40,563 nucleotides of DNA from a virus. Shown here in pieces: positions 4,173 to 32,005 of the stretch. The notes below the pieces were generated by a model. The model made no database searches and had not been told where the DNA came from. It was given only the letters and a program-made list of their open reading frames with translations. Where the stretch lies: positions 1 to 40,563 of IMG/VR virus record IMGVR_UViG_3300006738_000023; one strand, 5' to 3'. Both the position numbers and the translations under genes were made by a program. Each line of letters begins with the position of its first letter. Within the stretch, counting starts at the first letter, position 1.

Positions 4173-4852
4173 TCACCGCCGCATCACCTCAAGCGCCCCC
4201 GCCTCGATATGCTGGATTTTGCGCAGCGTGCCACGCATATCGTCCACACCCAGCATGCGCAGGGTGCTTTCTAGCTGGGTGCGTTCGATGCCCATGGGCA
4301 CGGGCTTGCCCATGGGTGGGGTCAGGTAGCGCCACTGGCTGGCACAATCGCGGAATACATCAAACGCGGTGGCGTTACCCGGCCATATCACGATGCGTTC
4401 AGGCGTTTTATAACGCTCGGGGATGGTGATGCCCCAAGCGTCTACGTCGCTTTTCAGCTCGTTTTTCGTACCACCTTGAGCGCCCGCCCAAGCGCGCCCA
4501 AGGTCGTTTAGTTTTTTGCGGTTAACTCCGGCATGCCCTGCTGCACTTGGTTCCAGGCGCGCACGCAGCCCATCAGTACATAGGGGTCTTTCAGCAGCTT
4601 CTCTTTCAGCTCGTCGGTAACGTCCATCGGCTTGCCGTTTTTGTCGGCAAAGCCGCTAAGGCTTACTACGTCCTCTTTCACGTGGTCGAAGCCTTTAGCT
4701 TCGCCGCTCTGCTGCTTTTGATGCAGGGCGTCTTGCTCGTCTAAATCGCGAACGCGAATTTCTGCGGTGAACTCTTCCTCTTCGCGGCCTGGGCGCTTAA
4801 TGGCAACGGTTTTAAATACAGTGGCAAGGCCAATCACAAATGCTGCAGCCAT
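4173..4852 (-). CDS. Tail assembly chaperone frameshift product (gpGT-like), -1 shift at 4511..4517
   Basis: After a -1 slip on A-AAA-AAC, the reading frame is open for 112 more codons (KLNDLGRAWAGAQGGTKNELKSDVDAWGITIPERYKTPERIVIWPGNATAF...EVMRR*). It runs into the 4173..4391 ORF listed in the track. Confidence 0.75.
4175..4232 (-). repeat. Intact copy of the repeated T 3' end (partner of 3647..3703)
   Basis: Encodes the last 19 codons of the T frame. See 3647..3703. Confidence 0.8.
4508..4852 (-). CDS. Tail assembly chaperone (lambda gpG-like)
   Basis: 114-aa acidic ORF located between the tail tube and tape-measure genes. Ends ...ACC GCA AAA AAC TAA, which contains a slippery heptamer. 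Confidence 0.75.
   Translation of the reverse strand: MAAAFVIGLATVFKTVAIKRPGREEEEFTAEIRVRDLDEQDALHQKQQSGEAKGFDHVKEDVVSLSGFADKNGKPMDVTDELKEKLLKDPYVLMGCVRAWNQVQQGMPELTAKN
4511..4517 (-). promoter_or_regulatory. Programmed -1 ribosomal frameshift slippery heptamer A-AAA-AAC
   Basis: Plus strand gtttttt equals minus strand A AAA AAC in the X-XXY-YYZ phase of the G frame, 1 codon before the G stop. Confidence 0.75.
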
Positions 4853-16240: not shown

Positions 16241-17509
16241 TTACCCCGCCGCCCCTTGCCACCACTGGGGCCGGTCGCTGTTGTGATAAAACGACGATCT
16301 TGGTTCTGTCTCGGTCAGAAACACGCTAAAACCACGCTCACACAGCCATTTATGCCAGCGCTCCAACGCGTCGAGAATCTGCCGCTCTGCGTAGGTGTGA
16401 ATGTAAGTACGATCTAGTTTTGTTAGGGCGTGATTTAACAGCAGCTCACCGGCTAGATACTCGACCCCGAGGTCAGCCCATGTAGTCCTGGCGAGCTTAC
16501 GCAGATCGTGAGAATGCCACCGCGCACCGCTGGCACTCACCACCAGATCAAACACAGCTGAACGGGATAACGGCTTACCCTTCGATGCACCAGGAAACAG
16601 ATACACGCCCCGGTAACCGTTCGCCTGCTGATATGCTCGGTAACGGGTCAACAGCGTGACAGCCATGGGCGTTAACGGCAGGCGGTGTTGTCGTTTGGAT
16701 TTTGTATTGTCGGTGGGGATAGTCCACGTGCGCGCGTCGAGATCGAACTGCCCCCACTTGGCTAGCCGCGTCTCACTGATACGGGTGCCGAACAGCAGCA
16801 TCAATAACAGCAGAAAACACCCCGGCGGCTCGCACGAACGCAGGGCGCGTATCACCTCGGGCACATCGGCAGCGGTCAGCGCACCCGCTTTAGCTGGGGT
16901 TTTCGCGTCGATGAAGTCGCCCACATTCACCCCGGCGAACGGGTCAGCATCCAACAGGTTCAGCTTACGGGCTTGCTTGAACGCGGCCTTGATCACCCCA
17001 AAAATCAGGCGCACATAGGCCACGGAATAATGCTCCTGTAGCGGCCACACCAACCCGCTATCGATAGACGCGGGCGTAATGCCCGCCAGCGGCTGGCCAC
17101 CGAACAGGGGCAATAGGTGCCGATTCACGGCGGTTTTGATCGATGATTTTCGAGTAGCGGATAACCGGCCATGGGATGCCGAACGGTCACGATACCAACA
17201 CAGCAGGTCGGCCACGGTTTCCCACGCATCGACGCCCACCGGCCCGGCAGGGTCAAGCGCCAGCTTGGCTTGAATCTCCGGCAAGCGCGCCAGCAAAGCG
17301 CGGGTGGTCAGCTCCGGGTAATTGCCCACCCGGTGCCAGTGGTCACGCCCACCGGCATAGCGCACCACGTACCAGCTCGCCCGCTCACGGCACGCATGAA
17401 AACGCACCCGCACCGGGTAGCGCGGGTCGCGTAACTGAGTAATCGAAGGGTCTTGTATGTGACGCTTGATAGCCGCGTCAGAGAGAGTAACCGCGAGGGT
17501 TTTGGGCAT
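16241..17509 (-). CDS. int: Tyrosine integrase, P4-like
   Basis: 422 aa. Catalytic signature: GTRISE (Arg), HDLRK (His-x-x-Arg), LLNH, and RTYIHTY (Tyr). N-terminal arm-binding-like domain. Confidence 0.9.
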   Translation of the reverse strand: MPKTLAVTLSDAAIKRHIQDPSITQLRDPRYPVRVRFHACRERASWYVVRYAGGRDHWHRVGNYPELTTRALLARLPEIQAKLALDPAGPVGVDAWETVADLLCWYRDRSASHGRLSATRKSSIKTAVNRHLLPLFGGQPLAGITPASIDSGLVWPLQEHYSVAYVRLIFGVIKAAFKQARKLNLLDADPFAGVNVGDFIDAKTPAKAGALTAADVPEVIRALRSCEPPGCFLLLLMLLFGTRISETRLAKWGQFDLDARTWTIPTDNTKSKRQHRLPLTPMAVTLLTRYRAYQQANGYRGVYLFPGASKGKPLSRSAVFDLVVSASGARWHSHDLRKLARTTWADLGVEYLAGELLLNHALTKLDRTYIHTYAERQILDALERWHKWLCERGFSVFLTETEPRSSFYHNSDRPQWWQGAAG

Positions 17510-17571: not shown

Positions 17572-17609
17572 GCGTTATTGCGTTATATCACGCTAGCGTT
17601 ATAGCGTTC
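17572..17609. repeat. Five GCGTTA/TCACGC boxes in 8-bp register, upstream of int
   Basis: GCGTTA at 17572, GCGTTA at 17580, TCACGC at 17588, GCGTTA at 17596, GCGTTC at 17604. Box starts are exactly 8 bp apart. Confidence 0.8.
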
Positions 17610-17821
17610 TAATTAGTGATAGGGGTTACTCGATGCGCCGGAACGTAGCGAATGCGTGACTTATGCTCCATATCCCTCCAATTCCGGTCACCAAACACCT
17701 TTAGCTTTAAGCGACCATCCGGCATTTCCTTCAAGACGTGACAACGCATGTGATAACGCTTCACCCATCGGCAGCAGTGATAACACTCTAGTAAGTGAGT
17801 AGCGTTTTCAGATGTCAGCAT
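17609..17821 (-). CDS. Cys/His-rich small protein, unknown function
   Basis: 70-aa ORF (CYHCCRWVKRYHMRCH) in a visibly lower-GC patch. Confidence 0.5.
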   Translation of the reverse strand: MLTSENATHLLECYHCCRWVKRYHMRCHVLKEMPDGRLKLKVFGDRNWRDMEHKSRIRYVPAHRVTPITN

Positions 17822-17858: not shown

Positions 17859-17872
17859 GCGTTATTTAACGC
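17859..17872. repeat. Two-box unit GCGTTA-TT-TAACGC upstream of ORF 17609..17821
   Basis: Same boxes and the same 8-bp spacing as the other arrays. Confidence 0.6.
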
Positions 17873-18083: not shown

Positions 18084-18466
18084 AAGCCGTCACGCTCCCG
18101 CGTGCGATCTTTCAGCGCCTCTAACGCCCGCTCGATACCCTGCAGCGCCTCGGCGTTGTACAAATCGGCATGCGGCCCATCTTGGAACCGCTCCAGGCGG
18201 TCGGCACACGTCGCCAGCACCGCTTCCAGCGTCACGCCGTTGGGGCCAACCTCCTGCGGGTTACCGTCCTGAAAGCTGATACACCCCAGCACCTGCCCCC
18301 GGCCTTCCAGCAGCTCAGCCTCAGCGCCCACGCCAATGATGTAATGGTTTTGTGCGCCACCTGGGGAGTATGGCCCGTGAGCGATCACCGCTTGGCCCAT
18401 GTCACCGCGACCGTTAGGGGTGACGGCATGCCCGGTCACTAACCGGGGCTGATTGAGATTAGGCAT
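18080..18466 (-). CDS. Hypothetical protein
   Basis: ATG at 18466 overlaps the upstream stop (ATGCCTAA). The C-terminal segment (ISFQDGNPQEVGPNGVTLEAVLATCADRLERFQDG...ALEALKDRTRER) recalls a widespread small phage protein family whose function I cannot assign. Confidence 0.5.
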   Translation of the reverse strand: MPNLNQPRLVTGHAVTPNGRGDMGQAVIAHGPYSPGGAQNHYIIGVGAEAELLEGRGQVLGCISFQDGNPQEVGPNGVTLEAVLATCADRLERFQDGPHADLYNAEALQGIERALEALKDRTRERDGL

Positions 18467-19154
18467 TAGCAGACGCCTCCCGGTTATGCTCAATGGCTTT
18501 GCTAGGGTCTACGGTTCTCCAGTCTGGCCAATCGCGCTGCTCATTCTTTGCCAACTTACCGGCTAACGCGCCAGCAATAGCGGCTGAGCTATGGCCAGCC
18601 CGCCAAGCGCCATCGAGCGCCAGCAGGACAATATCGATCCACTCGGAAAGATCCTCCGGGGCAGCGGCCACCTCGGCCAGCTCTTTTCTAATGTGGTCGC
18701 TAATCCCCTCAGCGCGGGCACCAGGGCCAAAGGCTTTAACCGAAAAGGCCCGTTGCCGATCAAGATGCGCCACCAAGTCGTAAGCACATGAGCTGGCAGG
18801 AACCGCCCACAGCTGAAACGGCCCATCTTCCGTATCATGAATAGAAAGCAGCACAGCATCAGGGCTAGGCGGCGCTAGCTCCCAACTTGCAAAAGTGTTT
18901 TCAAGATTCACGTACTCTTCAAAAGCGGGCGTTCCTTCATCTACCGTATTTTCAAACGAAACATGCTCCAACTTGCAGCGGTTCGCGTTCTCGAAAAGAT
19001 CCACAAAATATGTCGGGATAATCTCGCCATCACCAAGAGAGACACAAAACTTTTGCCACTCAGGGTGCGTAAAACTACCATCCTTCTCTCTGACCACCTC
19101 AACGGCTTCAATCATGGCCGTAACTCCTACTGTCGGTTTTGAATAGCGCGCCAA
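18459..19154 (-). CDS. Two-domain protein with a C-terminal DUF550/MazG-like nucleotide pyrophosphohydrolase domain
   Basis: HIRKELAEVAAAPEDLSEWIDIVLLALDGAWRAGHS...KLAKNEQRDWPDW matches the DUF550 pattern (E..P.DL.EW.D...L.LDG..R.G...K...N..R.WP). Confidence 0.65.
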   Translation of the reverse strand: MARYSKPTVGVTAMIEAVEVVREKDGSFTHPEWQKFCVSLGDGEIIPTYFVDLFENANRCKLEHVSFENTVDEGTPAFEEYVNLENTFASWELAPPSPDAVLLSIHDTEDGPFQLWAVPASSCAYDLVAHLDRQRAFSVKAFGPGARAEGISDHIRKELAEVAAAPEDLSEWIDIVLLALDGAWRAGHSSAAIAGALAGKLAKNEQRDWPDWRTVDPSKAIEHNREASANA

Positions 19155-19172: not shown

Positions 19173-19202
19173 GCGTTATAGCGTGCTAGCGTTATTTCAC
19201 GC
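19173..19202 (-). repeat. 30-bp four-box cassette (minus orientation), 19 nt upstream of the DUF550 gene
   Basis: Reverse complement is GCGTGAAATAACGCTAGCACGCTATAACGC. Confidence 0.85.
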
Positions 19203-21608: not shown

Positions 21609-21829
21609 GCCGCCACCCCATCGCGCTCAGCCAGCACCGCCGCCCAAGGGCCATAGATGCCGTTATAATCCACCGCACCAGCGGTCAACCGCACGATGCG
21701 CCCAGCGGTGCGTAAACTCGGCGCACGATCAAAGCGATACCAGCTCATCACCGTACGGGGCTTCTCGCTGAGTAGCGCGCCCGCACAGTCCGGCCCGCCC
21801 ACTTGATCAATCCAATCATTTAGCAACAC
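21605..21829 (-). CDS. Cro/YdaS-like HTH protein
   Basis: HTH pattern GGPDCAGALLSEKPRTVMSWYRFDRAPSLRTAGRIVRLTAGAV. The track ORF start (21967) lies upstream of the operators, so the start was moved to the GTG at 21829. The exact start is uncertain. Confidence 0.55.
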   Translation of the reverse strand: MLLNDWIDQVGGPDCAGALLSEKPRTVMSWYRFDRAPSLRTAGRIVRLTAGAVDYNGIYGPWAAVLAERDGVAA

Positions 21830-21925: not shown

Positions 21926-22020
21926 TACTATTGCCTGAGAGGTAATATTTACCCGAAAATTAATCACCGAAGGCGCACACGGACGGCATCAACGGCGGGA
22001 TAGATAACGGGAAGCGGAAA

Positions 22021-23761: not shown

Positions 23762-24273
23762 AGATTATGGCGACCGACCTACCGCTAAAACACTGGCAGC
23801 GCATCGCAGAGCAAAACGGCATTCAGCGCAGAACGTTTCTCTATCGCCTGAAAACCATGGACGCGAAAAAAGCCGCCACCAAGCCACTCAAAAAAGGCGG
23901 CATAAAGCCAATCGCCACCAGCAAGCGCCAAAAAAGCCTAGCCGCCGGGCTAGATGAATGCGCCCTAAGCCGCTACCGCCGCGAACACCCCGAAAGCCAG
24001 CTAAGCGACGAAGCCGCCCTCGCCTTTCTGCAAGCGCGCAAAGCCAAACTGCAAAACACCCTACGCGAACGCGCCCTTGCAGCAGGGCTAAGCCCCCAGC
24101 TGGTGTATCACCGCATTAGCCGCAACTGGCCGCTAGATAAAGCACTCAACACCCCGCCCATGCCCACCAGCCACGCGGCCCGCATCGGCGGTAAAGCCCG
24201 CGCCCAGCAAAAGCGCGAACGCCGCCAGCAGCGGCTCCAGCAAGCAGCGTTAAAAAACGCTAGCACGCAATAA
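23758..24273 (+). CDS. Basic protein with repeated HTH-like segments
   Basis: 171-aa ORF. Repeats of A..GI/L....Y.R motifs (IAEQNGIQRRTFLYRL; ALAAGLSPQLVYHRI). Confidence 0.5.
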   Translation: MKIMATDLPLKHWQRIAEQNGIQRRTFLYRLKTMDAKKAATKPLKKGGIKPIATSKRQKSLAAGLDECALSRYRREHPESQLSDEAALAFLQARKAKLQNTLRERALAAGLSPQLVYHRISRNWPLDKALNTPPMPTSHAARIGGKARAQQKRERRQQRLQQAALKNASTQ

Positions 24274-24276
24274 CGC
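24247..24276 (+). repeat. 30-bp four-box cassette upstream of rdgC
   Basis: GCGTTAAAAAACGCTAGCACGCAATAACGC. Overlaps the last codons of the preceding gene. Confidence 0.85.
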
Positions 24277-24304
24277 AAACAAAACCGACACAGGAAGCCC
24301 CGCC

Positions 24305-25471
24305 ATGTGGTTTACCAATATTACCGTTTACCAGCTCCACAACGCCCCAACGATCGACAGCATAACGCTGCATGAAACGCTGCAAGCAGAAGCCGCCAAG
24401 CCGTTAGGCAATACCGATGCCAAGCGCCACGGCTGGACACCCCCAGCAGGCCGCGCCAGCAACGCCTATCTGCACGAAAGCCAAGGCCACCGCCTGCTCA
24501 GCATGCTCAAACAGCAGCGCATGCTGCCGCCCAAGGTCGTCAAAGCAGCGGTCGAGGAAAAGGTCGCGGAAGTCGAAGTCAACGAAGGCCGCAAGGTCAC
24601 GCGCAAAGAAAAAACCGACTTCAAAGAACAGATCACCGAGGAGCTGCTACCCCGCGCCTTTATCGATAGCATCAAAATCGACGCATGGTGGGACGTAGAA
24701 AAAAACCGCATCATCATCAACAGCGGCAGCCGCGCCCGCTGCGAAGAGCTGTTAGACCTGCTACGCGAAACCCTCGGCAGCCTCAAAGCCACCCCGCTCA
24801 GCACCCAAACGCTACCCATCCGCGCCATGACCACCTGGGTAAGCGACGCCCAAAGCCGCCCCGCCAACCTGCAGCTAGGCGACAAAGCCACGCTCAAAGC
24901 CAAAGGCGACGACGGCAAAATAGCCGCCACGCAAGTGGATCTCGACAGCGACGAAATACAGCAGCTACTCGAAAGCGGGCGGCAAGCCACCAACCTCGCC
25001 ATCACCATTGATGAGCGCGTCAGCGGCGTACTCACCGACAGCCTGCAGCTCAAAAGCCTGCGCTTTAGCGACCAGCTGATCGAGCAAGCCGACATGACCG
25101 AAACAAAGAGCGACGATGGCGACGACCCCATAGCGCGCATAGAAGCCGATTTTTTCCTTATGGCCAACGCCCTAAGCGACACGCTGGATAGCCTCGTTCA
25201 CATGCTGGGCGATGAAACCGTGCGTGAAGTAGCCGAAGAAAAAGGCACCCGCCCCGACGACAGCCACCCCGGCGAACAGATCGGGGGCTTTGAGCCCAAC
25301 GACGCCCTCACACCCGCCGCCATCCAGCTCAGCAAAACCGAGAACGGCAACATCACCGTGACCCGCCTGCAGCGCCACTTCAAAATCGGCTACAACCGCG
25401 CCCAGCGCCTGCAAGAGTACCTAATCAGCAAAGGCCACATTCCCAACCCCTACGGGCAGCCAGCCCCATGA
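24305..25471 (+). CDS. rdgC: RdgC-like recombination-associated protein with a C-terminal FtsK-gamma-like winged helix
   Basis: MWFTNITVYQL...GWTPP...LLPRAF...LLDLLRETLGSL parallels E. coli RdgC (MLWFKNLMVYRL...GWVPP...LLPRAF...LALLRKSLGSL). The last 40 aa (TRLQRHFKIGYNRAQRLQEYLISKGHI) match the FtsK gamma motif (lQRrlrIGYnRAarl...lE..Gi). Confidence 0.8.
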   Translation: MWFTNITVYQLHNAPTIDSITLHETLQAEAAKPLGNTDAKRHGWTPPAGRASNAYLHESQGHRLLSMLKQQRMLPPKVVKAAVEEKVAEVEVNEGRKVTRKEKTDFKEQITEELLPRAFIDSIKIDAWWDVEKNRIIINSGSRARCEELLDLLRETLGSLKATPLSTQTLPIRAMTTWVSDAQSRPANLQLGDKATLKAKGDDGKIAATQVDLDSDEIQQLLESGRQATNLAITIDERVSGVLTDSLQLKSLRFSDQLIEQADMTETKSDDGDDPIARIEADFFLMANALSDTLDSLVHMLGDETVREVAEEKGTRPDDSHPGEQIGGFEPNDALTPAAIQLSKTENGNITVTRLQRHFKIGYNRAQRLQEYLISKGHIPNPYGQPAP

Positions 25472-25617
25472 ACGCCACCAACTACCGCTGCTACAACCCC
25501 AAATGCAACCAGGGCAACACCCCCGGCTGGATGCTGGGCGCTAACCCCATTTGCCCAAAGTGCGGCCACTGGCTCACCCGCCAGCCCAACGAAAACGCCA
25601 GCGTTAAAAAACGCTAG
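25468..25617 (+). CDS. 49-aa zinc-ribbon protein (below the ORF-track size cut-off)
   Basis: ATGA overlap with the rdgC stop. MNATNYRCYNPKCNQG...ICPKCGHW has two Cys pairs. Confidence 0.5.
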   Translation: MNATNYRCYNPKCNQGNTPGWMLGANPICPKCGHWLTRQPNENASVKKR

Positions 25618-25630
25618 CACGCTATAACGC
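25601..25630 (+). repeat. 30-bp four-box cassette abutting the SD of the next ORF
   Basis: GCGTTAAAAAACGCTAGCACGCTATAACGC is followed immediately by AGGAG and the ATG at 25646. Confidence 0.85.
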
Positions 25631-25645
25631 AGGAGACACAGCCCC

Positions 25646-25777
25646 ATGCCCACCCCGCTAATACTACTCATCGGCCTAGCCGTTGCCGCCGTCGCCTACG
25701 CCGGGTGGCAGTGCAAATGCGAAATCGAACAGCTCGACCAGAACGGCGACCCCATCGAGAAGGACGAACAGCCATGA
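25646..25777 (+). CDS. 43-aa single-TM protein (not in the ORF track)
   Basis: AGGAG 9 nt upstream. MPTPLILLIGLAVAAVAYAGW then an acidic tail. ATGA coupling to the next ORF. Confidence 0.55.
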   Translation: MPTPLILLIGLAVAAVAYAGWQCKCEIEQLDQNGDPIEKDEQP

Positions 25778-26019
25778 TCATCGACAACAGCGCCAAAAAC
25801 GCCCAGCGCATTCCCTGCAAAGAGTTTCGCGGTGAATGCCGCATGTGCCAAAGCGGGTTTATTGCCCGCAGCGGGGTATGCTCGGGCGTCAACCCTGACA
25901 CCGCCAGCCCGCCCGACTGCCTGCGAGACGAACTGCCAGAACACCTCTGCCATCCCAACGGCCTACCCCTGGGATGGGGCCAATTCACGCAGGACAGCGC
26001 CAGCGAGGCCGCCCAATGA
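25774..26019 (+). CDS. 81-aa Cys-rich protein
   Basis: Start moved to the ATG at 25774 (ATGA overlap). MIIDNSAKNAQRIPCKEFRGECRMCQSGF... Confidence 0.5.
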   Translation: MIIDNSAKNAQRIPCKEFRGECRMCQSGFIARSGVCSGVNPDTASPPDCLRDELPEHLCHPNGLPLGWGQFTQDSASEAAQ

Positions 26020-26252
26020 TATTCATCACCCTAAGCGGCATCGCCATCGGCATCGCCGTAGTGGGCCTAGTGTTCATGCACACGCGGCCCATATCGCCTC
26101 ACATCATGCGCGCCTGCCACATCATGCACGCCATCACCCTGACGATAAGCACCGCCACCATTACCGCCGCCCTCGCCCACCTGGGCGAGCCGCAAGCGTG
26201 CTGGTTGGCGGTGGATCTCCTGGGGGTAGTCATTGACGCTTGCACGCCCTAG
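26016..26252 (+). CDS. 78-aa membrane protein
   Basis: Start moved to the ATG at 26016 (ATGA overlap). MIFITLSGIAIGIAVVGLVFM plus further hydrophobic helices. Confidence 0.5.
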   Translation: MIFITLSGIAIGIAVVGLVFMHTRPISPHIMRACHIMHAITLTISTATITAALAHLGEPQACWLAVDLLGVVIDACTP

Positions 26253-26505
26253 CGCTACTCTGCCCGTGTCGCTGCAAAATCAGCGACCGGGTTTAGCAGC
26301 TCGCAACTCTTTCAGGCGCACAGCGCCCCGTTTCATCGTGTAGGCGTTTTTTTACGCCCGCAGGATGCACTATGGCGGGCCGTGCGTGGGGCACCTTCGG
26401 GTGCGCCGGTGTTCCTGAAGAGCCGGTCTGCTAACCCGCGTACGGTTCGCCACCATTGATTAGCAGCATAGTGGCGAACTCCAAACATCTTCAGGAGTTA
26501 CCGCA

Positions 26506-27288
26506 ATGTCTATACCTACCATTTCCGTTTCTGGTGTTTCCCTTCCCTATATCGAATACCAGGGCCAACCAGCTGTAACCTTCGCCATGATCGACGCAGC
26601 ACACCAGCGACCGCAAGGCACAGCAAAACGTAACTTTAGATCGAACAAACGCCACCTTATTGAAGGTGAAGACTTCTATGTTGCTGATTCTAAAAGCTTG
26701 GACGAAATTCGTCCCAGCTATCCGGGCCTATTCCCAGCGATGGCCACAAGCATGTTTTTCTTCACCGAAACCGGCTACCTCATGCTGGTCAAATCGTTTA
26801 CCGACGACCTCGCTTGGCAAGTACAGCGCCAGCTAGTGAAAAGCTATTTCCGCGTAAAAGGGGCGATGCAGCCCACCGCCGCCGAACCCATCCCCGCGCC
26901 CATCGACCACCGCCAGCGGGAACAGCTTACCAACGCCGCCAACGCCGTGTTTCGCAATTTCGGCGGCATGCGCCAAAGCGCCACCGGCTGGTTTTATAAC
27001 GGCGTCCGCACGGACTACTGCCTAAAGCGCATCGAAGATTTAAGCCAAGACGACTTCCCGGCAGTCATGGAACGCCTGCAAGCCCTACGCCCCAAGGTGC
27101 GCCAATACGAAGATTTTAGGTATGACTTCCAACAGTCGTTTTTAAAAGAGGTCGTAGGCGAAGGCCAGCCCTACACGGCATGGATCAGCAAGCTAGCCGG
27201 TGGCCAACACCACATCGGCCAGCGCCCCAACTGGAAAGCCATCGCCAAGCAGGTGCTAATCCACAACGGCCTGCTCACCAAACAGTAA
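26506..27288 (+). CDS. ORF6N/KilA-N-type DNA-binding domain protein (antirepressor-like)
   Basis: The N-terminal 120 aa (QPAVTFAMIDAAHQRPQGTAKRNFRSNKRHLIEGEDFYV...FTETGYLMLVKSFTDDLAWQVQRQLVKSYF) fits the ORF6N/Ant N-terminal pattern. AGGAG 8 nt upstream of the ATG. Confidence 0.6.
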   Translation: MSIPTISVSGVSLPYIEYQGQPAVTFAMIDAAHQRPQGTAKRNFRSNKRHLIEGEDFYVADSKSLDEIRPSYPGLFPAMATSMFFFTETGYLMLVKSFTDDLAWQVQRQLVKSYFRVKGAMQPTAAEPIPAPIDHRQREQLTNAANAVFRNFGGMRQSATGWFYNGVRTDYCLKRIEDLSQDDFPAVMERLQALRPKVRQYEDFRYDFQQSFLKEVVGEGQPYTAWISKLAGGQHHIGQRPNWKAIAKQVLIHNGLLTKQ

Positions 27289-27310
27289 GCCCATCCGCGC
27301 CAGCAAGCCC

Positions 27311-27336
27311 AAGCCCGCCACCGTGCGGGCTTTTTG
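27311..27336 (+). terminator. Rho-independent terminator
   Basis: AAGCCCGC-CACCGT-GCGGGCTT followed by TTTTG. Confidence 0.75.
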
Positions 27337-27350
27337 CTGCCTGAACGCCT

Positions 27351-27468
27351 GCGTTATAAAACGCTAGCGTTTTAGCGTTTTATCTTGCACCCCTAGCAGC
27401 GCTTTTCTATACTAGCGTTATTGCGTGCTAGCGTTATTTAACGCTGTAACGCCAGCGCGCAATAACGC
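27351..27468. repeat. 118-bp array of GCGTTA/TAACGC hexamer boxes in unbroken 8-bp register (candidate centromere/operator of the par operon)
   Basis: Box starts at 27351, 27359, 27367, 27375, 27415, 27423, 27431, 27439, 27447 and 27463 all fall on one 8-bp lattice of 15 slots. Orientation is mixed. Positions 27415..27444 are an inverted copy of the 30-bp cassette. The array ends 25 nt before the parA ATG. Confidence 0.8.
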
Positions 27469-27492
27469 AACGTTAGCCAAGGGGAAACACCA

Positions 27493-28137
27493 ATGGGATA
27501 CAAGATTGCCTTCGTGAGCCAAAAGGGCGGCGTCAGCAAAAGCACCCTAAGCCGGGCGCTGGGCACCACCTACGCCGCCGCTGGCTGGAATGTGAAAATA
27601 GCCGACCTCGACATCAACCAGTCTACCTCGTTTACGTGGCTGCAGCGCCGCCTTAAAAGTGGCGCATCGCCGGAAGTCGCGGTTGAAACCTTCGGCACGG
27701 TGGCCAGCGCTCTAAAGGTAGCTGACACCTACGACCTAATGATTTTCGACGGCGCGCCCCACGCCACCAAAGCCACCGCCGAAGTGGCCCGGCTTGCGGA
27801 TCTCGTCGTTCTACCCACCGCGCTAAGCGTTGACGACCTTGAACCCACCGTAAGGCTGGCCAACACACTCACCGGCCAAGAAGGCGTGCCCATCGACCGT
27901 ATCGCTATTGCGCTGAGCAAAGTGGGCAAGAGTAAAACGCAGCTGCAGGATGCCCGCGCCTACCTCGCCCATACGCCCTATTTTGTACTCGATGGCCAAG
28001 TACCCGAGCGCGACGCGTTTGTATTAGCCCAAGACAAGGGGCTGTCGATTGTTGAAACCCCCTTCAAAGGCCCGAAGGCCCAAGCGGATGAACTGATACA
28101 AAACATCATCAACCGCTTTGAATCACTTGTTAATTAA
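27493..28137 (+). CDS. parA: ParA-family partition ATPase (small, type Ib)
   Basis: Deviant Walker A SQKGGVSKST, A' IADLD, Walker B LMIFDGAP. 214 aa with no N-terminal HTH. Confidence 0.9.
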   Translation: MGYKIAFVSQKGGVSKSTLSRALGTTYAAAGWNVKIADLDINQSTSFTWLQRRLKSGASPEVAVETFGTVASALKVADTYDLMIFDGAPHATKATAEVARLADLVVLPTALSVDDLEPTVRLANTLTGQEGVPIDRIAIALSKVGKSKTQLQDARAYLAHTPYFVLDGQVPERDAFVLAQDKGLSIVETPFKGPKAQADELIQNIINRFESLVN

Positions 28138-28167
28138 GCGTTATATAACGCTAGCACGCTAAAACGC
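28138..28167 (+). repeat. 30-bp four-box cassette between parA and the RHH gene
   Basis: GCGTTATATAACGCTAGCACGCTAAAACGC starts at the base after the parA stop and is followed by AGGAG. Confidence 0.85.
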
Positions 28168-28180
28168 AGGAGCTAACACC

Positions 28181-28423
28181 ATGGCAAAGCCAAGCATGAA
28201 ACCCAGCAGCAAAGGCGCACCGCCCACAGCAGCCACCCCCGGCCCGGTGGTAGGCAACAACACCAGCAAGCCGGAAAGCGGCGAAAAGGTGCCGCTTAAT
28301 TTCCGCGTTGATCCTGAAATGCGCCGGGAGTTTAAAGCGTTTGCCGTAGATCATGACATGCAAATGGTGGACGTACTCAAGGAAGCCTGGGCAGCGTACA
28401 AGCGGGAAAAAGGGAAGGGCTAG
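28181..28423 (+). CDS. Ribbon-helix-helix ParG-like centromere-binding protein
   Basis: 80 aa. Disordered basic/Pro-rich N-terminal tail, then an RHH pattern (KVPLNFRVDPEMRREFKAFAVDHDMQMVDVLKEAWAAY). Immediately downstream of a type Ib parA. Confidence 0.7.
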   Translation: MAKPSMKPSSKGAPPTAATPGPVVGNNTSKPESGEKVPLNFRVDPEMRREFKAFAVDHDMQMVDVLKEAWAAYKREKGKG

Positions 28424-28425
28424 CC

Positions 28426-28776
28426 GTGAATAATGAGATCCAGCAGTTTGACCGCCTGATACCTAGCTATGAGCTGGCACTGTGCGCCATTGCTGAGCTT
28501 ATGTCGCACCACTATAAGAGCGTGCTAGAAAGCACCTCGATAGGCCCATGCGAGGGCGGCTATGCCGTCGCGGTCGCTTGCGACACCGGCCCCGCCCTAG
28601 TGGGATTCACCCTGCAGGAAACGCCGTACAACAGCTATCGAGACGCGTTAAGCGCCTTCGGCGTCATGCTGGACGACATCACCGCTCGCCAGGAAGGGCG
28701 CGCAGAATGGAAGAGTGAGGCGTGGTGGGAACAGCACCACGACGACCTGAAAGCCCGCTATGGCTTCGAGCTATAG
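28426..28776 (+). CDS. Hypothetical protein
   Basis: 116-aa ORF with a GTG start 2 nt after the preceding stop. Confidence 0.5.
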   Translation: MNNEIQQFDRLIPSYELALCAIAELMSHHYKSVLESTSIGPCEGGYAVAVACDTGPALVGFTLQETPYNSYRDALSAFGVMLDDITARQEGRAEWKSEAWWEQHHDDLKARYGFEL

Positions 28777-28854
28777 CGCACACTAAAACGCCCACCCGGT
28801 GGCCAGACCGGGCGGGCGTTACGCAACGACATAATACCAATGGGGATTACTATC

Positions 28855-29010
28855 ATGTCAGCAACAGAATATACCACGATTGCGCGCACACCGTTAAACC
28901 AGCTGCATACGCTGCCGCTGCACCTGCTGTGCGCCTACCTATACCAATGCCCAGCCATCAGCCGCCGTGCGCTAGAACGCATCGTGCGTATCCATGAGGA
29001 GGTCGTATGA
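28855..29010 (+). CDS. 51-aa hypothetical protein (not in the ORF track)
   Basis: ATG at 28855 with GGGGA upstream. MSATEYTTIARTPLNQLHTLPLHLLCAYLYQCPAISRRALERIVRIHEEVV. ATGA coupling to the next gene. The 28722..28997 track ORF is in another frame. Confidence 0.45.
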   Translation: MSATEYTTIARTPLNQLHTLPLHLLCAYLYQCPAISRRALERIVRIHEEVV

Positions 29011-29306
29011 TTAATTACTTCCAAGACAACCCAATGGAGGCGCTAACGCGCCTCATTAAAGCGGCCCAAGGAGACAGCCACCAAAGCCACCACGTGCGTC
29101 GATTCCTGCTTGGTTTGTACAACGCTGAAGAATGGCCCTTTGAAATGAATCGCCTCAGGGCGCTGGATCGTCAGCTGCAAATGGCCTGCTTTCGGGTGTT
29201 AGAGCTTGATGTCGTGACATGTGAGCGTGATATACACGAGTACCTGGAAAATGGCGGCACTATTTTTCAGCAATTCTGGCAGCAGGAAAGCGCCAGCAGT
29301 GATTGA
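29007..29306 (+). CDS. Hypothetical protein
   Basis: 99-aa ORF with GAGGAGG upstream. Confidence 0.55.
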   Translation: MINYFQDNPMEALTRLIKAAQGDSHQSHHVRRFLLGLYNAEEWPFEMNRLRALDRQLQMACFRVLELDVVTCERDIHEYLENGGTIFQQFWQQESASSD

Positions 29307-29325
29307 CCTTTTAGCGGCAAGCAAT

Positions 29326-29351
29326 AGCCCGGCCAATGAGCCGGGCTTTTT
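29326..29351 (+). terminator. Rho-independent terminator ending the plus-strand operon
   Basis: AGCCCGGC-CAATGA-GCCGGGCT followed by TTTTT. Confidence 0.8.
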
Positions 29352-29438
29352 CGTCGCAATCAATCAGGTTAATGACCTGGCTGTTATCCGAAGGATTTAT
29401 ATAACGGTATATAAATAACCTGCAACACTGAATGTATA

Positions 29439-29495
29439 AAATTCAAGATAATGACAATAATCTTGAATTTATCACAATAAGCGGGAATTTATCAC
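29439..29495. repeat. AT-rich non-coding block with an 11-bp inverted repeat and two GAATTTATCAC direct repeats
   Basis: AAATTCAAGAT (29439..29449) and ATCTTGAATTT (29460..29470). GAATTTATCAC at 29465..29475 and 29485..29495, 20 bp apart. Lies between convergent transcription units. Confidence 0.7.
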
Positions 29496-29523
29496 GCTTA
29501 TGTACCTGCAAGGCTAACCATCA

Positions 29524-29804
29524 TTAGCCAAGCGATGACGCACGTGAACGCCGCTTTCTTACCCGGCCTTGCAGCCTTTCCCACCATTCGCCGGGTAGCC
29601 AGATCGACACCCAGCGCAATAGCAATTCAGCCCGGCGTGTGTCCGGGTAATCGTCGGGGTAGTGGGTAAAGTCGCTGGCCAGCGCCAGCAGTTGGGCCTT
29701 GCCTTGCTGTTGCACGGCATGGTGGGCGGGGTCAAACGCGGCATCCAGCAGCACGGCCAACCACGTGGCCACTTCATCGGCGTTCATTTTGCGGGGGCGG
29801 GGCA
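29524..29804 (-). CDS. Hypothetical protein
   Basis: ATG at 29804 with AGGTG 6 nt upstream. 93 aa. Confidence 0.5.
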
Positions 29805-29849
29805 TCGCGGGCACCTATTAGCGTGACATATTCCCCACTATAGCAGCCG

Positions 29850-30134
29850 CTAATCGCCCCGGAAATTGTTTTTGAGTATCCAGTTATCCGGCGTGCCGGT
29901 GTTTTGACGCCGGGCGTGGGCCGCTGCCTGCTGTGATCGGGTACGGGCAATCACGCCAATGGCCAAGCGATCTAACCGGCGGCTGCCTGGGTGCTGCACA
30001 TAACCCACCTCGGCACACGCAGCGCATGGGAAGCGGTGAAAAAGCCCATGCGTAAAGCCGTGGCCGTTGCAGTGCGTGCAAGTGGTGGCCTGCAGTTGGG
30101 CAAGCGTGCGGGGAAGGGAAGGCGGTAGCGTCAT
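29850..30134 (-). CDS. Small protein with a DnaJ-type zinc-finger motif
   Basis: CTHCNGHG (CxxCxGxG) plus CAACAEVG. Confidence 0.5.
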   Translation of the reverse strand: MTLPPSLPRTLAQLQATTCTHCNGHGFTHGLFHRFPCAACAEVGYVQHPGSRRLDRLAIGVIARTRSQQAAAHARRQNTGTPDNWILKNNFRGD

Positions 30135-30350
30135 GCGCTTAGTTTACCGGGGGTTGGGGGTTATGTCGCGCTAGCGACATGCAAGCCGCCCACTGAACTA
30201 TAAGCAGGCATTATAGGTGCGCGGCGAACGGGCGTTAGCCCGCCCAACTATGCGGAACCCCTTGCCACTGCTAAACGGGGTTTGGGGTTTAGCGGGGTCC
30301 AGGGGTGCAACCCTTGGGACAACCAGCCCGGCAGGGCTGGGCGTCAGTGT

Positions 30351-30560
30351 AGAGCGTTTCTGCGCTTGCGCAGGCATTTAAAGCCCTTGACCTTGTGCTC
30401 TTAAGAGAGTTTCCGCGCTTGCGCGGGCATTGTGGATAAACCCCACGCTAGTGGGGGTTAGCTGAACCTATTTAATTACATAAGAAGAGCATATTAACGG
30501 TGTACAGCTAATTTATTGCCATATCACCTAACTTTTATTTCAAATCACTTAATTTTACAT
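30351..30560. other. Candidate plasmid-type origin of replication (downstream of repA)
   Basis: Two 27-bp direct repeats, each with a GCGC-TT-GCGC palindrome (30352..30378 and 30405..30431, 24/27 identical, 53 bp apart). Perfect DnaA box at 30431..30439. AT-rich stretch with ATCACYTAAYTTT repeats at 30523 and 30544, 21 bp apart. Confidence 0.55.
30431..30439 (-). promoter_or_regulatory. DnaA box (TTATCCACA on the minus strand)
   Basis: Plus strand TGTGGATAA is a perfect 9/9 match to the consensus. Confidence 0.6.
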
Positions 30561-30751
30561 CTTTAAAGGGGATTGGAATCAGCGGCGGGGATCGGGCGTT
30601 TCGGGGTCGGTTTCGGGCGTAGATCGAAGGGATTTTGCGCCAGCGGGGCGCTAAAACAGGCAGGGAAACGGGGCAAGGGTAGCACCCAGCCACGGGCTAA
30701 GCGCCCGGCGTGGGGCGCTGCGTGGCATTCTGGGGTGGGGTTAGCGGCGGG

Positions 30752-31717
30752 CTAGTGTCGTCGCTGCCGGTCTAACCACTCTTCATACGGCGGGTATTTG
30801 ATGCGTACCAGCTTGTTAACCTCGGCATAGCTGGCACCGGGGTTATCGCGCACCACCTGGGCAAAGTAGGCGTTTGCCTCTTGGTTATAGCGGCGCTGCA
30901 GTTCTTTTTCATCGTTGGCGTCGGGTAGATCCTTCTTACCCCGGCGCTGCTTCTGCATCGCTCTGGGGCCGCTGCCTGCCATCGCTAGGCGGCTACGGGC
31001 CTGGGCGGCGTCGTACGCCTTGGGGTGCTGCTCGCGGTGCTTACGGCGGGCTTTCTTAATGCGGTTGCTGCACCAGTCGCGGAACTCCTTAAACTTCTGG
31101 TAGCCCACACGCCCCAGCGCCAGCAGAAAATCCGGGTTGAGTAGCTTCACAGCAGGCCGGGCGCGCTTAGTACCGTCGGCTTTCACCTCATGCTGCAAAT
31201 GCACGGTGAACGCGCCAGCGAGCTTCAAGCGCCGGAAGGCGCGCCAAAAGCGTTGGCTAGGCTCTGGGGCTTCGGGGGTGCTGCCGGGTGCCAGCAGGCC
31301 CGCCACGCGGGCAATTTCCGCACAGCTGCGGTGCTTGAAACCGCCATCGGGCAGGGGGGTGCCCACACGCAGACTGGCGAACTCGGTAAACTGGATAATG
31401 GCAGAAAGTACCAGCGACTCAGCAGCGCGGGCCTCGGATCGGTTACAACGGGGGTTACCATCGGCGTTCGCCTTACCGTTCAAATTCGCCAGGGTGGGCA
31501 ATAGGCCGGGGCTGTTGTAATAGGCTTTGGCACCGTCCACCAGCGCTTGCAGGGTGGCGGGTAGCCGCCCCTTTTTCAGCGGTTGGCAATAGCGGTCAAA
31601 TTCCCCTTTAGCAGGGTCGTGGCCACACCGGTTACCGGTTCCCCAGTATTTGCCGGGGTGTTCGTACGGCACGCGCCCCCACTTGCGGGGCTGCGCGTTC
31701 TCTGCTGCAGCATCCAT
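30752..31717 (-). CDS. repA: Plasmid-type replication initiator, IncFII RepA-like
   Basis: ATG at 31717 (the track start at 31723 is TTG). The central region (RSCAEIARVAGLL...SQRFWRAFRRLKLAGAFTV...ARPAVKLLNPDFLLALG) parallels R100 RepA (ITTLAIECGLA...ITRATRALTFLSELGLITY...YIPTDITFTSALFAALD). Basic C-terminus. The replicon context also supports the call. Confidence 0.55.
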   Translation of the reverse strand: MDAAAENAQPRKWGRVPYEHPGKYWGTGNRCGHDPAKGEFDRYCQPLKKGRLPATLQALVDGAKAYYNSPGLLPTLANLNGKANADGNPRCNRSEARAAESLVLSAIIQFTEFASLRVGTPLPDGGFKHRSCAEIARVAGLLAPGSTPEAPEPSQRFWRAFRRLKLAGAFTVHLQHEVKADGTKRARPAVKLLNPDFLLALGRVGYQKFKEFRDWCSNRIKKARRKHREQHPKAYDAAQARSRLAMAGSGPRAMQKQRRGKKDLPDANDEKELQRRYNQEANAYFAQVVRDNPGASYAEVNKLVRIKYPPYEEWLDRQRRH

Positions 31718-31773
31718 TCGCAAAATCTCGCTTGAGACTTGCCCGCGTCTTGTGCAGCAGTTAAACTCTGAGG

Positions 31774-31854
31774 AGTCGGTTTTGTGCCCCAGCCTTTAAG
31801 GTTTGCTGCCCAAAACATCCGAGAAGCCCCAGCGCCAACTGGGGCTTTTCTTTT
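31774..31854 (+). ncRNA. Candidate countertranscript (CopA-like antisense RNA) against the repA leader
   Basis: Plus-strand TTGCCC (31739..31744), 17 nt, TAAACT (31762..31767). Plus-strand terminator AAGCCCCAG-CGCCAA-CTGGGGCTT followed by TTCTTTT at 31824..31854. The predicted RNA is about 80 nt and fully complementary to the repA 5' leader. Confidence 0.4.
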
Positions 31855-31960
31855 GGGTGTCTATCTAGTTAATTTGTATGTCTTTTTTGCCTTCTAACCA
31901 ACGCCGCCCGGCGCTGGTCATCAACTCACTGTTTGCCAATCCTAGCATTACAAAAGCGTT

Positions 31961-31979
31961 TTGACACGAACTGTGTTAA
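31961..31979. promoter_or_regulatory. ACAC-N5-GTGT operator upstream of the repA leader
   Basis: TTGACAC-GAACT-GTGTTAA has 6/7 symmetric arms and the same architecture as the cI/cro operators. Confidence 0.5.
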
Positions 31980-32005
31980 AAAAATTTGCTCAAAACGCTC
32001 TGGGC

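Follow-up and report, generated by a model that had tools for sequence, protein, structure and literature searches.

Introduction

The parH/OF sites of TP228 comprise approximately 20 short boxes arranged in an 8 bp register (a 4 bp box followed by a 4 bp spacer), in both direct and inverted orientation, and overlap a promoter (PMC3130281). One dimer of the ParG protein occupies each box, inversion of a box is tolerated, and parH and OF each act as a centromere (PMC3130281). In pSM19035, the omega repeats form mixed-orientation arrays that overlap a number of promoters and act as parS too; activation of ParA requires four or more contiguous repeats, and the ribbon-helix-helix (RHH) ParB protein cannot spread (PMC9499535). 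We examined a viral DNA of 40,563 nt (IMG/VR record IMGVR_UViG_3300006738_000023, positions 1 to 40,563; hereafter the window) that carries, between positions 27343 and 27470, a lattice of GCGTTA/TAACGC boxes upstream of a type Ib parA gene and a gene for a small RHH protein. The computational results comprise the arrays with their statistics, the signature of the promoter, the families of the proteins, array conservation and the covariation of box and protein. It is probable, judging from these comparisons, that the lattice is the binding array (centromere plus operator) of the element's own ParG-like RHH protein.

A third described system is found on the Halomonas sp. ZM3 plasmid pZM3H1, for which an orf34/orf35 PAR module was proposed in silico, with orf35 as the predicted ParB and repeats as the predicted parS (PMC3606827). 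These repeats were described only as '7-bp imperfect inverted repeats', and the additional arrays of that plasmid went unmentioned (PMC3606827). An earlier sequence-only reading of the window held that its box matches no known centromere. This cannot be maintained, because the same TAACGC repeats had already been proposed as the pZM3H1 parS (PMC3606827). The two loci are alike in their proteins (ParA 68% and RHH protein 57% identical) and in having TAACGC boxes both ahead of parA and between parA and the RHH gene; they differ in that pZM3H1 is a mobilisable heavy-metal (mercury-resistance) plasmid and not a phage-plasmid. At a type Ib locus, an array close to par is to be expected. What appears to be new relative to the pZM3H1 report is the RHH/ParG-like nature of the protein, the 8 bp register, the size of the family, the tendency of the box to follow the RHH strand and the dispersed modules of at least four boxes in phage-plasmids.

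Partition-protein sites scattered over a replicon, as found here, are also a feature of N15, which has four natural inverted-repeat (IR) centromere sites (PMC7205306). Both N15 Sop and the similarly scattered RK2 KorB system differ from the present one in using helix-turn-helix, CTP-dependent ParB proteins (type Ia) at single palindromic sites rather than RHH proteins on box arrays. In both replicons these elements, the centromere sites of N15 and the 12 KorB operators of RK2, have an additional effect on gene expression.

Over most of its length the window is collinear with a 45.8 kb circular plasmid of Halomonas qaidamensis that carries genes for capsid, portal, terminase, tail, holin, integrase and a CI-like S24 repressor. 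Since this plasmid encodes virion, integrase and repressor genes it is classed as a phage-plasmid, and by this comparison the window appears to be most of a Halomonas-type phage-plasmid. A megablast search with positions 24000-32000 gave no match in the phage collection and one only among plasmids.

Results and discussion

A lattice of boxes on both sides of the par promoter

The sequence-only reading had placed ten hexamers (GCGTTA, GCGTTT, GCGTGC or their complements) at 27351, 27359, 27367, 27375, 27415, 27423, 27431, 27439, 27447 and 27463 on a common 8 bp lattice. All ten starts proved exact, and all ten boxes share the lattice. An eleventh in-phase box, GAACGC, begins at 27343, and slot 27455 holds a degenerate twelfth box, GCGCGC, which is GCACGC or GAACGC in relatives. 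In all, 12 of the 16 slots over 27343-27470 are occupied, and the four empty slots (27383-27414; TCTTGCAC CCCTAGCA GCGCTTTT CTATACTA) form a promoter core. Corrected for orientation, the consensus unit is T-A/T-GCGT-T-A-T-A, corresponding to a GCGTTA hexamer plus a 2 bp spacer that is usually TA, and the window contains 17 forward (F) and 18 reverse (R) copies. Because boxes of both orientations begin at the same lattice position, the fixed point of the register is the hexamer centre.

For statistical purposes a box was defined as GCGTnn or nnACGC. The richest 15-slot lattice of 8 bp period in the window is the par site, with 10 boxes, and 300 dinucleotide shuffles of the window reached maxima of only 3-5; periods of 5-13 bp other than 8 yielded at most five boxes per 15-slot lattice. 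All 11 boxes within 27343-27478 fall in one phase, a concentration that exceeded four in none of 2000 local shuffles. The window also contains seven strictly contiguous runs of at least four boxes at period 8, and 499 of 500 shuffles gave none. Contiguous runs of this length were absent from the window at periods of 6, 7, 9, 10 and 11 bp. The earlier expectation that the phase is very unlikely to have arisen by chance is therefore borne out, since no shuffle approaches the observed lattice.

The putative sigma-70 promoter of the par operon, TTGCAC-17-TATACT, lies on the plus strand at 27385..27413 (TTGCAC 27385-27390; TATACT 27408-27413). This assignment was made because the hexamers are conserved while the spacer drifts. 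Among thirteen related loci that were fetched (handles beginning with L; RHH proteins 53-99% identical), the promoter hexamers are identical in nine, which differ in the sequence of the 17 bp spacer. Deviating forms occur in L010 (TTGATC-17-TATACT) and in L012 and L013 (TTGCAC-16-TATACT). Boxes adjoin both promoter hexamers in all close relatives examined, and in the eleven loci with GCGT boxes (L001, L003-L008 and L010-L013; RHH proteins 68-99% identical) GCGTTA/TAACGC arrays flank the par promoter.

The lattice is best read as two arrays, five boxes before the -35 element and seven slots after the -10 element, each of which would need its own internal register. The upstream array (27343..27382, R F R F F, no strand assigned) consists of the five 8 bp units GAACGCCT GCGTTATA AAACGCTA GCGTTTTA GCGTTTTA and ends 2 bp 5′ of the -35 element. 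Four of its boxes are retained in promoter-anchored relatives, with one slot flipped in orientation in L001. The downstream array (27415..27470, F F F R R x R, where x is the degenerate slot; again without strand) is palindromic about 27438/27439, begins 1 bp 3′ of the -10 element and occupies the 5′ untranslated region (UTR) of parA. It contains 3-7 boxes in relatives and is palindromic in every case. The two arrays share a phase because the promoter core spans exactly 32 bp, and a single phase across the promoter is not essential, since in L012 and L013 the 16 bp spacer sets the arrays 1 bp out of phase. The strict single phase over 118 bp that the sequence-only reading emphasised is thus real, but in part a by-product of the 32 bp core.

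Individual slots flip orientation between relatives without moving. For example, slot 27367 reads GCGTTTTA in the window and TAACGCTA in L001, and slot 27439 reads TAACGCTG in the window and GCGTTAAA in L001. Such flips, together with a varying number of boxes, are the pattern expected from selection on a protein-binding lattice. The arrangement resembles that of TP228 in placing mixed-orientation boxes on an 8 bp register around the par promoter, and differs in its unit, which is GCGTTA with a 2 bp TA spacer here and ACTC with a 4 bp AT spacer in TP228.

On its 5′ side the par control region is bounded by a terminator-like hairpin on the plus strand at 27313..27335, read from the sequence as GCCCGC-CACCGT-GCGGGC followed by TTTTT. 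This hairpin closes the upstream ORF6N (ant-like) gene and is conserved in L001. Two 'terminators' flagged by a consensus promoter scan, 27412-27431 (plus strand) and 25620-25595 (minus strand), were rejected as by-products of box palindromes.

parA and a predicted ParG-like RHH protein

The sequence-only reading also held that a type Ib parA and an RHH gene follow the array, and matches at the level of structure, profile and Foldseek search now agree with it. The parA gene (27493..28137, plus strand) encodes a 214 aa protein with a deviant Walker A motif, KGGVSKS (residues 11-17), and has no N-terminal DNA-binding domain, as in type Ib proteins. The protein matches CbiA, AAA_31 and MipZ in Pfam, belongs to PHROG 164 (ParA-like partition protein), and matches NCBIfam ParA_partition with an E-value of 5e-28 and 98 bits, under the curated cutoff of 180 bits. 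Its closest solved structures, aligned end to end, are TP228 ParA 5u1g and ParF 4dzz.

The RHH gene starts 43 bp downstream of parA (28181..28423, plus strand) and encodes the predicted ParG-like centromere-binding protein, an 80 aa polypeptide with a disordered tail (residues 1-36), a strand VPLNFRV (37-43) and two helices (45-57 and 62-77). As in TP228, a small Walker ParA is followed by a protein of 76-80 aa in which a flexible tail precedes a C-terminal RHH domain. A profile built from 67 members of the family matches the PDB entries 56B (E 0.0016) and ParG 1p94 (E 0.0037; residues 28-73 aligned with ParG 29-74), and gives weak matches to CopG and omega (omega E 0.4-0.6). Foldseek searches with the AlphaFold2 (AF2) monomer returned nearly exclusively RHH proteins as top matches, with probabilities up to 0.99 and ParG at rank 7. 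Across the 67 members, Pfam assigns RHH_10 to 25, Antitox_RHH to nine and ParG to one. The match to ParG (PF09274) has an E-value of 0.0015 and the 80 aa query itself has none, which sets the protein apart from that of TP228. An exhaustive profile search found 548 relatives of the RHH family at E <= 1e-3. The 80 aa protein falls in phrog_6024, whose function is given as unknown, and the family is 'hypothetical' in every record examined.

In close homologs the tail motifs K11-G-x-P-P and VVGNNT-x-KP and the strand residues N40 and R42 are invariant. Within the tail K7, K11, K30 and G12-x-P14-P15 do not vary, and residues 1-36 include no arginine. The tail (28181-28288) is unusually conserved for a disordered segment, and K-G-x-P-P recurs across the wide family. 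The arginine finger of TP228 is therefore missing from the window protein, which has conserved lysines and K-G-x-P-P instead. From this conservation the tail is a candidate ParA-activating lysine motif, in which a lysine could replace the arginine finger.

The sole match in a single-sequence PDB search was Avs4, which we judged to be due to chance. Distant genes of the RHH family on plasmids of Novosphingobium, Agrobacterium and Mesorhizobium (L021, L022 and L024) lie directly upstream of large N6-DNA-methylase genes, with no parA adjacent. These three tblastn matches were excluded from the box comparison for lack of parA. The family is, on this gene context, evidently used outside partition loci too.

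Further box modules across the element

Besides the two arrays at the par promoter, runs of at least four boxes occur at 28138-28167, 25593-25630, 24247-24276, 19173-19202 and 17572-17609. These extra arrays occupy short gaps between genes of the early and maintenance region, and the late structural genes are free of them except for a doubtful three-box run at 4395..4416 (F F R, no strand), which may be chance, given that three-box runs appear in about 12% of shuffles. Box sites outside par are retained in most of the loci that cover them. Among the 2.9 million viral contigs of IMG/VR, a 22 nt module core is confined to this phage-plasmid family.

The module in the gap between parA and the RHH gene (28138..28167, plus strand) has four boxes (F R R R; GCGTTATA TAACGCTA GCACGCTA AAACGC) followed directly by the Shine-Dalgarno sequence AGGAG. 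It is present in nine of the eleven GCGT-box loci (L001, L003-L007 and L010-L012; not detected in L008 and L013) and, with altered boxes, in pZM3H1, in Pseudomonas aeruginosa, Pseudomonas coronafaciens and Edwardsiella elements and in an Aliivibrio phage. A five-box module (25593..25630, plus strand, R F R R R) overlaps the end of a 49 aa open reading frame (ORF), abuts the Shine-Dalgarno sequence of the next gene (ATG 25646) and is conserved in L001 and L003-L008. The four-box module at 24247..24276 (plus strand, F R R R), conserved in L003-L008 and decayed in L001, lies 28 nt upstream of an rdgC-ftsK-gamma gene (ATG 24305). On the minus strand, a four-box module (19173..19202, F R R R) precedes the gene 18459..19154 (-) and is conserved in L001, L005 and L006, and a five-box module (17572..17609) lies 63 nt upstream of the integrase gene 16241..17509 (-) and is conserved in L001 and L005.

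The recurrent form is a 32 bp module, GCGTkAwA TAACGCTA GCACGCwA TAACGC (F R R R). Four copies of it occur away from the par promoter region, and each points the same way as the gene that follows. In the cases with an identified start codon, the last box precedes this codon by 13-28 nt and often touches the Shine-Dalgarno sequence. Genes downstream of modules encode the integrase, the dATP/dGTP pyrophosphohydrolase-like protein, RdgC, a small ORF at 25646 and the RHH protein. Each array contains one convergent pair, GCGTTAwwwAACGC. An isolated copy of this palindrome, GCGTTAttTAACGC, lies at 17859..17872 (no strand), where its function is uncertain. No boxes occur in the region of the CI-like S24 repressor.

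Every dispersed module of the window has at least four contiguous boxes, a likeness to pSM19035 in view of its repeat requirement. In all, the window has seven arrays of at least four boxes. The pSM19035 heptads (WATCACW type, 7 bp) differ from the 8 bp units here, and the box sequences are unrelated. A further difference is that some window modules lie inside operons beside Shine-Dalgarno sequences with no visible promoter; TP228 differs in turn in that the window has arrays at five or more sites other than par. A promoter can be recognised at the arrays only for par in the window and for cargo cassettes in relatives. These cassettes, located between the ORF6N gene and parA, carry their own array of 4-5 boxes approximately 30 bp upstream of a TTGCAA-17-TATAGT/TATATT promoter. 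Since no promoter is visible beside the internal F R R R modules, a regulatory role for them is speculative. Taken together, the dispersed modules suggest that the centromere is distributed, that there is an omega-like regulon, or both.

Could the arrays be operators only, through which the RHH protein represses several operons while the centromere lies elsewhere or does not exist? Boxes do flank the par promoter, arrays precede the promoter-like sequences of the relatives' cargo cassettes, and pZM3H1 (L027) carries extra TAACGC/GCGTTA arrays (21693-21730 and 21968-21989) just upstream of a RelE/ParE toxin-antitoxin operon, an arrangement that seems to echo the control of epsilon/zeta by omega. 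However, operator arrays double as centromeres in the characterised type Ib systems (TP228, PMC3130281; pSM19035, PMC9499535), no second repeat family lies beside parA, and the internal modules have no visible promoter. We consider this explanation unlikely.

Homology with L001 breaks within a few base pairs of module edges at 17615, 24247, 25631 and 27379, and at 25631 homology with L007 breaks as well. Non-homologous cassettes abut modules; examples are the additional gene 18459..19154 and, in L001 and L004, the cargo that separates the ORF6N gene from parA. From these alignments the modules look like joints of mosaic exchange.

The box tends to vary with the RHH strand in distant relatives

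Plasmids and phages that carry distant members of the family retain the 8 bp register around parA and change the box. The strand xPxNxRV accompanies the boxes TAACGC or TGACGC (window, pZM3H1, P. coronafaciens), xPxNFK accompanies TAACGA, GCACGA or TGACGA (two Vibrio elements, Edwardsiella, Aeromonas phage Ahp2), VDxNFKV accompanies TAGCGA (P. aeruginosa pPAC1.3b, Yersinia pestis pTP33), and APLNFKP accompanies TAAAGA (Aliivibrio phage). The varying residues 38 and 42 would share the DNA-facing side of the RHH strand, since both alternate with the invariant N40. A strict recognition rule (R to C, K to A) was rejected because it fails in Xanthomonas and Defluviicoccus; the relationship is a tendency only.

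The Aliivibrio phage vB_Alvi_H905 (L025) shows how far the box can change. Approximately 130-175 bp upstream of its parA lie five perfect tandem copies of TTCTTTAT and a sixth unit, TTCTTTAC, and the gap between parA and the RHH gene holds three copies of TAAAGAAT plus TAAAGATA, a wholly different box in the same 8 bp register.

In whole-replicon scans, dispersed arrays were found only of each replicon's own par-proximal box type. Seven control cores gave no arrays in these scans, except for one stray three-box GCGC run in L001. The Edwardsiella phage-plasmid and the window both carry an array shortly upstream of the integrase gene; in Edwardsiella its boxes are of that element's own TCGTTA type.

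These comparisons bear on whether the boxes are bound by a protein other than the RHH product, such as a host factor or another regulator of the phage-plasmid. Comparison of the window with the whole 31 kb pZM3H1, in which parA and the RHH gene are the only shared content and TAACGC arrays are present in both, singles out these two genes, although both elements reside in Halomonas-group hosts, which on its own would suit a host factor. A shared host does not account for a box that changes with the RHH strand residues across hosts from Vibrio to Pseudomonas, or for arrays that flank parA in every case and also fill the interval before the RHH gene. Among other phage-plasmid regulators, the neighbouring ORF 28426..28776 was rejected as the box binder, because it has no homolog in L001, whose boxes are identical, and the CI-like S24 repressor is disfavoured by the box-free region around its gene. 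Binding by another protein is thus highly improbable.

The repeats as RNA elements or iterons

Owing to the palindromic downstream array, the parA leader RNA (27414-27495, plus strand) is predicted to fold into a long hairpin (-38.8 kcal/mol, z = -6.2), and such a 5′ UTR structure could add an RNA-level influence on parA expression. That the elements act mainly as RNA, as 5′ UTR hairpins controlling translation or mRNA stability, would also explain why F R R R modules point in the direction of the following gene and adjoin its Shine-Dalgarno sequence. Nonetheless, the transcript does not include the upstream array, folding of the internal modules is weak (z -0.2 to -2.2), and no Rfam family matches at the arrays. 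Moreover, orientation flips between relatives keep the register, and a strict 8 bp register of a 6 bp box in both orientations is a signature of double-stranded DNA. We rate this possibility marginally below that of a different binding protein, and very low.

Although short repeats on a plasmid recall the iterons of replication origins, this explanation can practically be set aside, because the arrays travel with parA and the RHH gene rather than with the putative rep gene 30752..31723, which has no boxes near it and different, 28 nt direct repeats of its own, because the pZM3H1 boxes lie at par and its predicted oriV repeats are different sequences elsewhere (PMC3606827), and because an 8 bp period with mixed orientation is not iteron-like.

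Proposed mechanism of the centromere-operator

A combined centromere and operator for the RHH protein accounts better than any alternative for the register, the flips, the placement ahead of the promoter and the covariation. This ParG/omega-style interpretation, already put forward in the sequence-only reading, is supported by the ParA, the RHH profile, the architecture of the arrays and the box-protein comparisons.

Several observations weigh against it. A generic consensus promoter scan did not list the par promoter, whose -35 element is weak (3/6 positions of TTGACA), and a search within the internal F R R R modules and immediately 5′ of them revealed no convincing promoter. The single-sequence Pfam match of the 80 aa protein to RHH_10 is below threshold (E 0.003, 18 bits compared with a cutoff of 27), and its AF2 monomer has a low-confidence pLDDT (predicted local distance difference test) of 64 and forms no strand alone. 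Xanthomonas pAG1 and Defluviicoccus have an NFRV strand yet mixed GCACGC/GCACGA boxes, and in the Aliivibrio phage the asparagine is kept with a TAAAGA box. Finally, since the window and pZM3H1 come from the same host genus, that comparison taken alone is also compatible with a host factor.

From the features above we infer the following scheme for binding and its stoichiometry, for repression and centromere activity, and for what the dispersed modules do. One RHH dimer would bind each GCGTTA hexamer with the dimer centre at the hexamer centre, and boxes of both orientations would share one register for this reason. Adjacent dimers would touch over the 2 bp TA spacer and coat the DNA cooperatively. 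A coat on both flanks of TTGCAC-17-TATACT would switch off transcription of parA and the RHH gene (autoregulation), and the same nucleoprotein complex would serve as the partition complex, or centromere. The flexible N-terminal tails with K-G-x-P-P would recruit ParA (type Ib) and activate its ATPase. The RHH protein is further predicted to load on the runs of 4-5 boxes at 17572, 19173, 24247, 25593 and 28138, which would then act as extra mini-centromeres for a non-spreading ParB, as roadblock-type operators ahead of the genes for integrase, RdgC, cargo and the RHH protein, or in both ways.

A broader proposal, that the four-box modules at cassette junctions are at once a distributed centromere, roadblock operators and joints of cassette exchange, is possible, but we hold it only tentatively and think it rather doubtful as a whole. 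Here the partition protein would be a master regulator of maintenance genes (integrase, rdgC-ftsK-gamma, cargo and par), and two strand residues would provide a re-programmable box code across at least 548 sequence clusters. A distributed centromere of scattered four-box modules is proposed because an RHH ParB is unable to spread, and the modules of at least four boxes thereby bear on the question, raised by pSM19035, of how a non-spreading RHH ParB builds a large enough partition complex. The analysis also gives a predicted function to the widespread and previously unannotated family phrog_6024, and candidate cis sites for this family on plasmids and phage-plasmids of Halomonas, Vibrio, Aeromonas, Edwardsiella, Y. 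pestis, Pseudomonas and Xanthomonas. The correlation of box and strand offers a simple route to a specificity swap.

Other features of the element

Upstream of the ORF6N (ant-like) gene (26506..27288), two Rfam families match above their gathering scores, the a1/b1 targets RF03163 (58 bits) and the C4 antisense RNA RF01695 (79 bits), at 26255-26307 and 26368-26457 on the plus strand. By these matches the region 26255-26457 looks like an immI immunity module of the P1/P7 type in a Halomonas phage-plasmid.

The gene at 24305-25471 (plus strand), which a box module precedes, encodes RdgC fused to a C-terminal FtsK-gamma-like domain (...LQRHFKIGYNRAQRLQEYLISKGHI). Its homologs are recorded with the Pfam families RdgC and FtsK_gamma, and NCBIfam gives a weak FtsK match over residues 327-378. 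A link of this gene to Xer-type or integrase-mediated dimer resolution is possible.

Two 28 nt direct repeats (30351-30378 and 30404-30431; 53 bp apart, 89% identical) lie beside the gene 30752..31723 (-), which encodes a 323 aa protein with no Pfam family, assigned to phrog_20951 (unknown function) and 89% identical in L001. From this arrangement, 30351-31723 is a candidate Rep and origin region.

The gene at 18459-19154 (-) encodes a dATP/dGTP pyrophosphohydrolase domain (Pfam PF04447, E 2e-24). It is absent from L001 and, in the window, is inserted directly downstream of the 19173-19202 module.

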